From sequence record PQ093904.1: 64,000 nt of DNA. The stretch is one strand, 5' to 3'. Of this stretch, positions 10,443-11,177 are shown in pieces. The notes beneath the pieces were generated by a model. The model saw only the letters and a list, made by a program, of their open reading frames with translations. It was not told the origin of the DNA and searched no databases. The DNA comes from Pseudomonas phage phi9_PA9. Every line of letters starts with the position of its first letter. Position 1 is the first letter of the stretch. The position numbers were made by a program, and so were the translations under genes.

Positions 10443-11177
10443 ATGACTTACATTGTTAATGATGGTAAAGTCATGATTGCTGATTGTCTATTAATTACAC
10501 GTGATACTGCTACTGATGCACTTGGACGATTACCAGTGTTAGACAATAAGTATTTGGACCTTAATGCTAGCGCTAAAGGGGTTGATATTTATTATAATGA
10601 TTGTCACAAAATCATATTTCACCCAACTGCTACATGGCGGGGTAAAAGAATTAAAACACTCGCTTTTGCTGGAACCACAGATAATGTTTATGATTTACTG
10701 AATTCACTTACAGCTGGTGTTGATTTAAATGACTGGTTTAAAGTTGAAGTAAATATCCTGCCAATTTCAGAACGCAGGATATTTAATGGTAAAACTTCAA
10801 TGATGTATACCATGGAGGATGGCCGCATTTATACAGCTATTCTCAATAATGTTGATATTGACATTACTGAGAAAAAATGGGCACATTTAGGTAGTGGTGT
10901 GGATGCAGTGAATAGTGTAATTGATTTTATCCCTAATTGTAATAATAATGGGATAATTGAACTAACTGCACTAGAAGCATTTGCTATTGCTTGTGCACAT
11001 ACGCACACAGTAAGCCGTAAGTTTGATTATTTTATCCATGCTACTGGTGAGTATAAACAGAATCAAGAACTATCTACTAGACAACTTAAATGGATCTTAG
11101 CTCGTATTCAGAAACGTATGGATCTTACATGTATCTACACTGATGTAAAATATGCTAATGATGTATGGAGTGAATAA
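10443..11177 (+). CDS. HslV/proteasome-like Ntn-hydrolase peptidase homolog
   Basis: Thr directly follows Met1 (MTYIVNDGKVMIAD, compare HslV TTIVSVRRNGHVVIAGD). AFAGTTDNVYDLL matches HslV AGFAGGTADAFTLF. HLGSGVDAVNSVI matches HslV AIGSGGPYAQAAA. The RBS is GAGGAGGATAA. Confidence 0.6.
   Translation: MTYIVNDGKVMIADCLLITRDTATDALGRLPVLDNKYLDLNASAKGVDIYYNDCHKIIFHPTATWRGKRIKTLAFAGTTDNVYDLLNSLTAGVDLNDWFKVEVNILPISERRIFNGKTSMMYTMEDGRIYTAILNNVDIDITEKKWAHLGSGVDAVNSVIDFIPNCNNNGIIELTALEAFAIACAHTHTVSRKFDYFIHATGEYKQNQELSTRQLKWILARIQKRMDLTCIYTDVKYANDVWSE

Follow-up and report, generated by a model that had tools for sequence, protein, structure and literature searches.

In Pseudomonas phage phi9_PA9 (sequence record PQ093904.1), an open reading frame (ORF) at 10443..11177 of the 64,000-nt stretch analyzed here (the window) encodes the ortholog of the phiKZ protein PHIKZ289 (gp289). 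The window is ~92% identical in DNA sequence to the phiKZ-like jumbo phages of Pseudomonas aeruginosa, and the two proteins share 80% amino acid identity. An earlier interpretation made from the nucleotide sequence alone (hereafter, the sequence-only reading) described the product as an HslV- or proteasome-like N-terminal nucleophile (Ntn) hydrolase and proposed that it works with a BCS1-like AAA ATPase encoded upstream. The assignment to the Ntn-hydrolases is borne out by a conserved catalytic set and by profile alignment with HslV; most of the evidence does not favor the pairing. We consider it likely that the ORF encodes a divergent, probably active proteasome-like Ntn-hydrolase that is independent of the AAA ATPase.

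Reading frame, fold and active site

There is no in-frame start codon upstream of the ATG of this ORF, which is preceded by a strong Shine–Dalgarno sequence (Table 1). The primary product therefore starts Met-Thr, and the 244-aa Met-Thr ORF of the sequence-only reading stands as described. The gene evolves under purifying selection, with a ratio of nonsynonymous to synonymous substitution rates (dN/dS) of 0.12 relative to phiKZ; because of this ratio, the strong Shine–Dalgarno sequence, and the detection of the protein in phiKZ, we regard the gene as real. A 72-aa ORF on the + strand (10241..10459) that overlaps its start is probably not a gene: it spans a terminator-like hairpin, is conserved only in phiKZ (77%), and lacks conservation at distant loci.

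Profile–profile alignment (hhalign) with an authentic HslV alignment extended from Met-Thr through the GSG loop, with a probability of 84.5% and an E value of 7e-6. Three blocks were paired with HslV in this alignment: MTYIVNDGKVMIADC (residues 1-15), LAFAGTTDNVY (73-83), and HLGSGVDAVN (148-157). The sequence-only reading had also named three such blocks, but the strings that it quoted are HslV's own. A weak hidden Markov model (HMM) link to PHROG 1040 (peptidase HslV family) was found for the target (E 2.8e-5), and 9 of 12 close relatives matched the same profile. Neither the target nor any of 53 family members matched Pfam PF00227 or the NCBIfam models TIGR03692 and NF003964, whereas Salmonella HslV, used as a control, matched these curated models at 1e-90. 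The profile comparison with HslV and PF00227 that had been suggested was thus positive by hhalign and negative for PF00227. Searches of Protein Data Bank sequences with the target and with family profiles returned nothing meaningful (Rab27A, EngA, and others at E>0.1; HslV at E 1.8).

We collected the gp289 family as 11 clusters in a set of 5.8 billion proteins and as 52 representatives from an exhaustive HMM scan of 1.84 billion proteins; none of the 52 links the family to the large clusters. Nearly all full-length members open with MT and then have a hydrophobic strand and an (I/V)AD(K/R) motif, and the N terminus of family members is always exactly Met-Thr or Met-Ser, without extension. Conservation was counted over a 53-member alignment and, for Thr2, over the 50 sequences with an intact N terminus. 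The Thr1, Lys, and Gly equivalents, whose conservation the sequence-only reading had singled out as a check, are invariant or nearly so (Table 1). Methionine aminopeptidase removes Met before Thr, and by this specificity Thr2 would become the first residue of the mature protein. The set formed by Thr2, Asp14, Lys56, Gly77, Gly150, and Asp195 matches the defining features of the superfamily listed by Fuchs, Alva, and Lupas (PMC8665760). In the predicted model, an S1-S11 core flanked by helices H1-H4 forms the alpha-beta-beta-alpha sandwich, and Thr or Ser as the first mature residue, equivalents of proteasome Asp17 and Lys33, the Gly47 region, and the GSG loop are likewise predicted.

This model was computed with AlphaFold2 (AF2) from 53 sequences and replaced a mediocre one made from eight sequences (predicted local distance difference test, pLDDT, 75). 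Where the sequence-only reading had counted about 70 extra C-terminal residues, the total was nearly right (~68 residues beyond HslV) and the placement was not: only ~35 are C-terminal, and ~30 lie between strands S2 and S3. As a result of this family-specific insertion, Asp14 and Lys56 are 42 residues apart, compared with 16 in HslV. In 20S beta subunits, the S2-S3 loop borders the substrate cleft. Helices H1 (82-90) and H2 (95-102) are both predicted.

Table 1. Coordinates of the peptidase gene, its signals and catalytic positions, and other features of the window
Feature	Coordinates	Strand	Remarks
Coding sequence, PHIKZ289 ortholog, divergent proteasome-superfamily (T1-like) N-terminal-threonine peptidase	10443..11177	+	244 aa
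Shine–Dalgarno GAGGAGG	10432..10438	+	4 nt 5' of ATG 10443; read from sequence
Terminator-like hairpin, gap between gp288 and gp289 homologs	10381..10408	+	Perfect 10-bp stem AAAGCTCTCC / GGAGAGCTTT, loop TTCG, then ATTT
Thr2 codon, predicted N-terminal nucleophile after Met1 removal	10446..10448	+	48 Thr + 2 Ser of 50; aligns with HslV Thr1
Asp14 codon, candidate proteasome Asp17 equivalent	10482..10484	+	53/53; S2 motif (V/L)IAD beside HslV VIAGD; register inferred
Family-specific S2-S3 insertion (residues 15-55), predicted beta-hairpin and loop	10485..10607	+	AF2 strands 17-22 and 47-51, pLDDT >90
Lys56 codon, candidate proteasome Lys33 equivalent	10608..10610	+	52/53 and 53/53 in two alignments; strand start before AFAG strand; inferred
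AFAG motif (residues 74-77), oxyanion-hole/proteasome Gly47 region	10662..10673	+	Gly77 53/53; aligns with HslV GFAG
Gly150-Ser151-Gly152 loop, proteasome Gly128-Ser129-Gly130 equivalent	10890..10898	+	Gly150 53/53; aligns with HslV GSG
Asp195 codon, candidate proteasome Asp166 equivalent	11025..11027	+	51/53; after helix H4 in model; equivalence inferred
C-terminal extension (residues 210-244), helix 212-225 and tail	11070..11174	+	AF2; absent from HslV, which ends ~35 residues earlier
BCS1-like AAA ATPase (context only)	6794..8320	+	Pfam AAA and BCS1_N; 98% identical to PHIKZ286; 508 aa
gp287 homolog (context only)	8681..9334	+	tblastn match at all of L001-L012; 41-51% identity outside phiKZ
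137-aa ORF directly 3' of gp287 homolog (context only)	9337..9750	+	tblastn match at all of L001-L012; 28-31% identity outside phiKZ
Ribonucleotide reductase small subunit	26774..27937	-	
Ribonucleotide reductase large subunit	28038..30377	-	
Terminase large subunit	43930..46083	-	
DUF7193 protein	47878..50574	-	
gp28 vertex-binding protein	50591..51553	-	
Tail sheath gp29	51682..53769	+	
Tail tube protein	53801..54682	+	

The protein is about equidistant from HslV, 20S beta subunits, Anbu, and BPH, and is therefore not an HslV in the strict sense. HslV (ClpQ) is a compact protein of ~176 aa without insertions, is recognized by curated models, and has its cognate hslU alongside; the gp289 homolog differs on each of these counts. 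Its identity to 20S beta, Anbu, and BPH is 8-19%, without a sequence-level family match, and unlike them it is a phage early gene with no alpha-type partner gene, propeptide, or Anbu-type operon. A tblastn search of phages with Escherichia coli HslV matched nothing but bacterial DNA labeled "phage"; judged by BLAST, canonical HslV is therefore not encoded by phages. The same kind of search with two distant family members (P0025 and P0035) matched no isolated phage.

Proteasome homologs of phages, namely PPH, AAH, and CPH, have already been published (PMC8665760), and orphan HslV-like genes have been reported in a jumbo phage (PMC7823757), so that the novelty claimed for a phage-encoded proteasome-like peptidase was overstated. 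Like gp289, PPH, AAH, and CPH (and the related RPC and DPH) have the conserved Thr1/Ser1 set and, in most cases, lack an identified ATPase partner (PMC8665760). By the published descriptions, PPH and RPC differ from it: PPH is ~140 aa long and both lack H2, whereas the gp289 homolog has 244 aa and both H1 and H2. The gp289 family is a distinct small clade of a known kind, which amounts to a correct new annotation and not to a demonstrated new proteolytic system. One family member carries the Joint Genome Institute label HslVU peptidase subunit.

Expression and proposed action of the peptidase

In phiKZ infection, PHIKZ289 mRNA climbed from a value of 1 to 74.5 at 2 min and had reached 550 at 10 min, in step with gp285-gp290, and the protein was detected at a log10 iBAQ (intensity-based absolute quantification) value of 9.86 without being classed as structural (Gerovac et al. 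2024, PMC10914614 supplement). It peaked in fraction 3 of a 10-40% glycerol gradient (0.36, 0.55, 1, 0.45, 0.55, and 0.18 in fractions 1-6; PMC10914614), and 57% of it was in the pellet (PMC10914614 supplement). Host HslV peaks in fraction 3 as well but sediments differently, being nearly absent from fractions 1-2, with a pellet share of 0.01 (PMC10914614 supplement). Size-exclusion chromatography (SEC) of lysate enriched for species of >100 kDa gave three peaks for PHIKZ289 (Fossati et al. 2023, PMC10449902). The phiKZ ortholog is an early nonvirion product that exists in more than one assembly state. The texts of the papers that we searched make no mention of gp289 or PHIKZ289.

A peptidase of this type would act as follows. 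Host methionine aminopeptidase would cut off Met1 and free Thr2 as the N-terminal nucleophile. Thr2, with Asp14, Lys56, the AFAG oxyanion region, and the GSG loop, would then hydrolyze peptide bonds in the manner of HslV and 20S beta subunits. The ~30-residue hairpin insertion beside the cleft and the 35-residue C-terminal extension probably provide a substrate preference of its own, contacts within an oligomer, or both. Since the protein is transcribed within 2 min, is an early product absent from the virion, and has more than one assembly state, we infer that it may act in the cytoplasm during takeover and cleave proteins or peptides that belong to the host or are made early by the phage. 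It would do so alone, like Anbu and BPH, which are partnerless as far as known, or possibly with a host ATPase.

Four points weigh against this account. The equivalences of Asp14, Lys56, and Asp195 come from invariance and predicted topology, not from superposition. Activity, substrate, oligomeric state, and localization of family members are predicted at most. The presence of gp289 in fractions 1-2 and its 57% pellet share differ from host HslV, and a classical soluble double ring is therefore not evident. Finally, three loosely related lineages have a BCS1-like AAA gene at a distance of 1-5 kb from a proteasome-like gene.

If the annotation is right, its interest lies in the biology of phiKZ, the model nucleus-forming jumbo phage, most of whose early genes lack an assigned function. 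The annotation makes PHIKZ289, like its relatives in PhiPA3, PA1C, Psa21, D6, RVTF4, and Viktualia, a probable Thr-nucleophile peptidase that is produced within 2 min, which would give a handle on early host takeover. With its S2-S3 hairpin insertion and C-terminal extension, the clade adds structural variety to the phage proteasome homologs.

The BCS1-like ATPase and other candidate partners

That a BCS1-type AAA ATPase lies upstream of the peptidase gene is confirmed by its Pfam domains (Table 1). The sequence-only reading cast the peptidase as the proteolytic chamber and this ATPase as the unfoldase or translocase of a noncanonical ATP-dependent protease, a model that we consider unlikely. 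Like mitochondrial Bcs1, the ATPase has BCS1_N and AAA domains and an N-terminal hydrophobic helix (here MVMGGAIGMAIGGLFWTTL). An insertion of ~110 residues within the AAA domain (~295-405), absent from most other phage homologs, was recognized from tblastn matches that split in two and from the length of the PHROG profile (430 positions, compared with 508 aa).

Gene order speaks both for and against the model. In phiKZ, PhiPA3, and PA1C, both genes are on one strand, with the AAA gene 2-5 kb upstream of the peptidase gene. In Xanthomonas phage LucasX a BCS1-like AAA gene is found 3.8 kb upstream of the Ser1 proteasome-like gene LUCX_24, with no other gene of the phiKZ block in common, and in Erwinia phage Derbicus one is found 1.2 kb upstream of gp123, annotated as peptidase HslV family. 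By contrast, no AAA gene occurs within 6-10 kb of the peptidase gene in D6, Viktualia, eight IMG/VR loci, a metagenome contig (L016), or Psa21, where the two genes are ~40 kb apart. Conversely, no proteasome-like ORF occurs within 7 kb of the AAA gene in fENko-Kae01, phiTE, FLC4-4C, Centimanus, Miami, Psa21, or CcrPW. Judged by adjacency, the genomic co-occurrence proposed as a check is seen in phiKZ, PhiPA3, PA1C, LucasX, and Derbicus but not at the other loci sampled here. The AAA gene is also about three times as common, with 159 phage records in many genera, whereas the peptidase has about 50: tblastn found 47, and the HMM added PhiPA3 gp355 and a PA1C coding sequence. In Derbicus, the peptidase has a more obvious partner in an HslU-like ATPase encoded 2 kb away. 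The proximity of the two genes exceeds random placement and leaves some room for a link; phage genes, however, cluster by expression class.

At the phi9_PA9 locus, the terminator-like hairpin separates the AAA and peptidase genes. RNA-seq values at 10 min in phiKZ fall from 769 for gp288 to 550 for gp289 (PMC10914614 supplement), a drop that fits partial termination. With a 10-bp stem and a T-run between the gp288 homolog and the peptidase gene, placement of the two genes in the same early operon block is doubtful. The synonymous divergence (dS) from phiKZ is 0.51, 1.02, and 1.18 for the gp288-gp290 homologs (9892..11689; amino acid identity 74-81%) and only 0.04-0.18 for the flanking genes on both sides, the AAA gene included (93-98%). 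The raised dS implies that a module of three genes was replaced by recombination and that the AAA gene was not exchanged with it (0.5-1.2 versus 0.18).

In phiKZ itself, gp286 and gp289 have the same early mRNA kinetics, and more than 50% of each protein is found in the gradient pellet, as the pairing would allow. Their gradient profiles are nevertheless uncorrelated, with a Pearson r of -0.03, an indirect measure from Grad-seq data and not a dedicated interaction test; the gp289 profile correlates with those of neighboring small proteins at ~0.92. The gp286 profile peaks in fraction 5 and has a broad heavy tail (PMC10914614 supplement). PHIKZ285 and PHIKZ286 were assigned to the 70S ribosome, and gp286 coelutes and cross-links with gp285 and the stalk proteins (cross-links to rplL, rplK, and rplJ; PMC10449902), a location that argues against a role as unfoldase for gp289.

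The features of the ATPase point in both directions. BCS1 belongs to the classical AAA clade, as do the proteasomal ATPases, and weak NCBIfam matches to PAN, FtsH, and CDC48 fit this membership; it speaks for the proposed role, as does the lack of a detected HslU homolog in phiKZ-like genomes. The protein ends in FINSLLKY, with Tyr last and not penultimate, and so has no HbYX docking motif. Pore loops of the Bcs1 type are not known to carry the aromatic-hydrophobic-Gly motif that threading unfoldases have, and by eye this motif is not evident in the window ATPase. Bcs1 moves folded protein across a membrane without a peptidase partner (PMC7824862), whereas phiKZ gp286 is reported on ribosomes, and Iyer et al. 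2021 (PMC7824862) discussed jumbo-phage BCS1 orthologs as candidate translocases in virion assembly and not as protease partners. Most likely, the neighboring BCS1-like AAA ATPase is an independent ribosome- or membrane-associated factor. A membrane-anchored, ribosome-contacting BCS1-type ATPase in the early operon merits study in its own right.

We see a slim chance that the gp289 family and this membrane-anchored, ribosome-associated ATPase form a so far unknown protease that acts transiently, on the membrane, or within the pellet fraction. If so, it would remove host or nascent proteins in the first minutes of infection, and would have left its genomic footprint in the proximity of the two genes, which recurs in phiKZ-type phages, LucasX, and Derbicus. 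A proteolytic machine with a BCS1-type ring at its base would bear on how proteases evolved, but the current evidence does not favor one.

As the sequence-only reading noted, the window has no HslU/ClpX-type ATPase: none of Clp, HslU, ClpX, or other AAA+ type was found among the 20 further ORFs of at least 223 aa that were scanned. An hslU gene elsewhere in the genome, which would have offered the peptidase another partner, was not found either, in that a search with the HslU-like ATPase gp116 of Erwinia phage RAY (AAA_2 family) detected no homolog in phiKZ-like genomes. Derbicus and RAY differ from them in encoding such an ATPase. RAY gp116, reported to colocalize with phage DNA, was considered as an HslV-like relative and rejected; it belongs to the HslU-like ATPase family, and its neighbors gp117 and gp118 are not proteasome-like.

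A phage peptidase without a phage HslU-type ATPase could dock on host HslU (P. aeruginosa PA5054), either to retarget ATP-dependent proteolysis or to act as a decoy and so block HslUV. Lysates of infected cells contain host HslU and HslV (PMC10914614 supplement), and orphan HslV-like genes without HslU occur in another jumbo phage (PMC7823757). The gradient profile of soluble gp289 correlates with that of host HslU (r 0.89), but this value is uninformative because it does not exceed those for unrelated small phage proteins (0.91-0.93). Moreover, the peptidase is no nearer to HslV than to 20S beta, Anbu, and BPH, curated HslV models do not match it, and the 30-residue insertion and C-terminal extension alter its surface. 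We therefore give little credence to docking on HslU.

A still less probable reading has the Thr1 chemistry serve something other than bulk proteolysis, as it would in a sequence-specific ligase or transpeptidase of the archaeal Connectase kind or in an amidase with one target. A large part of the soluble phiKZ protein is found among small species (fractions 1-3), where a monomer or small oligomer would be expected, and the insertion sits beside the substrate cleft. Connectase is a proteasome homolog that works as a monomeric ligase, and several new homologs seem incompatible with ring formation (PMC8665760). All of H1-H4 are predicted in the gp289 homolog, however, whereas Connectase lacks the first pair, and the three SEC peaks in lysate enriched for >100 kDa species point to higher assemblies.

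It is hardly credible that the protein has kept the fold but lost catalysis and now serves a structural or regulatory role, as proteasome alpha subunits do: activity in the family is predicted only, and Anbu, a close structural neighbor, is not known to have protease activity, but the nucleophile and all catalytic positions are near-invariant down to ~15-20% identity, and with the N terminus always exactly Met-Thr/Ser an inactive scaffold is not expected. The proteasome-like Ntn-hydrolase acting independently of the AAA ATPase is the reading that we retain.

Neighboring genes and relatives

The gp287 homolog and the 137-aa ORF that follows it lie ~2 kb upstream of the gp289-family gene at 12 of 12 loci, phiKZ included. 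They were considered as obligate partners of the peptidase and rejected, as gp287 is present in 201phi2-1 and Phabio without a detected gp289 homolog; none was found in an 18.7-kb syntenic block of 201phi2-1 or, by tblastn, in Phabio. The 137-aa ORF has matches at distant loci with E values of 1e-11 to 1e-17. It is a real gene that is under-annotated in the phiKZ RefSeq record, where just a 159-nt piece (PHIKZ287.1) is given. Sequence divergence points to a more distant phiKZ-like lineage as the putative donor of the gp288-gp290 mosaic segment. A 3.4-kb contig labeled Pseudomonas aeruginosa carries the closest gp289 allele (94%). From the structural and ribonucleotide reductase genes in 14000..64000 (Table 1), it follows that the window crosses the conventional start of the phiKZ map.

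Some records in the phage collection (OR849164.1, OR844988.1, OR846616.1, AFYI01000005.1, and others) carry a bacterial hslV-hslU pair. They are labeled as Listeria, Staphylococcus, Enterococcus, or Salmonella "phage" (UNVERIFIED_ORG) or are plain bacterial contigs, and the canonical HslV/HslU matches in the collection are therefore host DNA.

Two gp289-family members that tblastn missed are unannotated: PhiPA3 gp355 (L013, 11636-12370; HMM E 7e-58), which starts Met-Ser, and a PA1C coding sequence (L015, 11763-12440; E 5e-51). LUCX_24 of LucasX (MW825358.1, 12028-12681), annotated as hypothetical, has the Ser1 proteasome-like pattern MSAIAYDG...AGDR...AIGSG... and matches the family HMM at E 8.5e-9. 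The BCS1-like AAA gene LUCX_13 is 3.8 kb upstream of it. In Derbicus (NC_048173.1, 6058-13373), the BCS1-like AAA gene gp119 is followed by three small ORFs, gp123 (which starts MTT), four ORFs, and the HslU-like gp129. The gp123/gp129 cluster resembles the phiKZ types in combining a jumbo-phage proteasome-type peptidase with a nearby BCS1-like AAA gene, but gp123 has only 167 aa and its similarity to the gp289 family is marginal (E 0.008). We regard this arrangement as a candidate HslUV-like module of a phage, next to which lies a BCS1-like AAA gene. In IMGVR_UViG_3300042010_000112 (L005), a 133-aa ORF (2008-2406) located ~8 kb upstream of the family gene matches the family HMM weakly (E 8.4e-5) and may be a fragment or distant paralog of the gp289 family.

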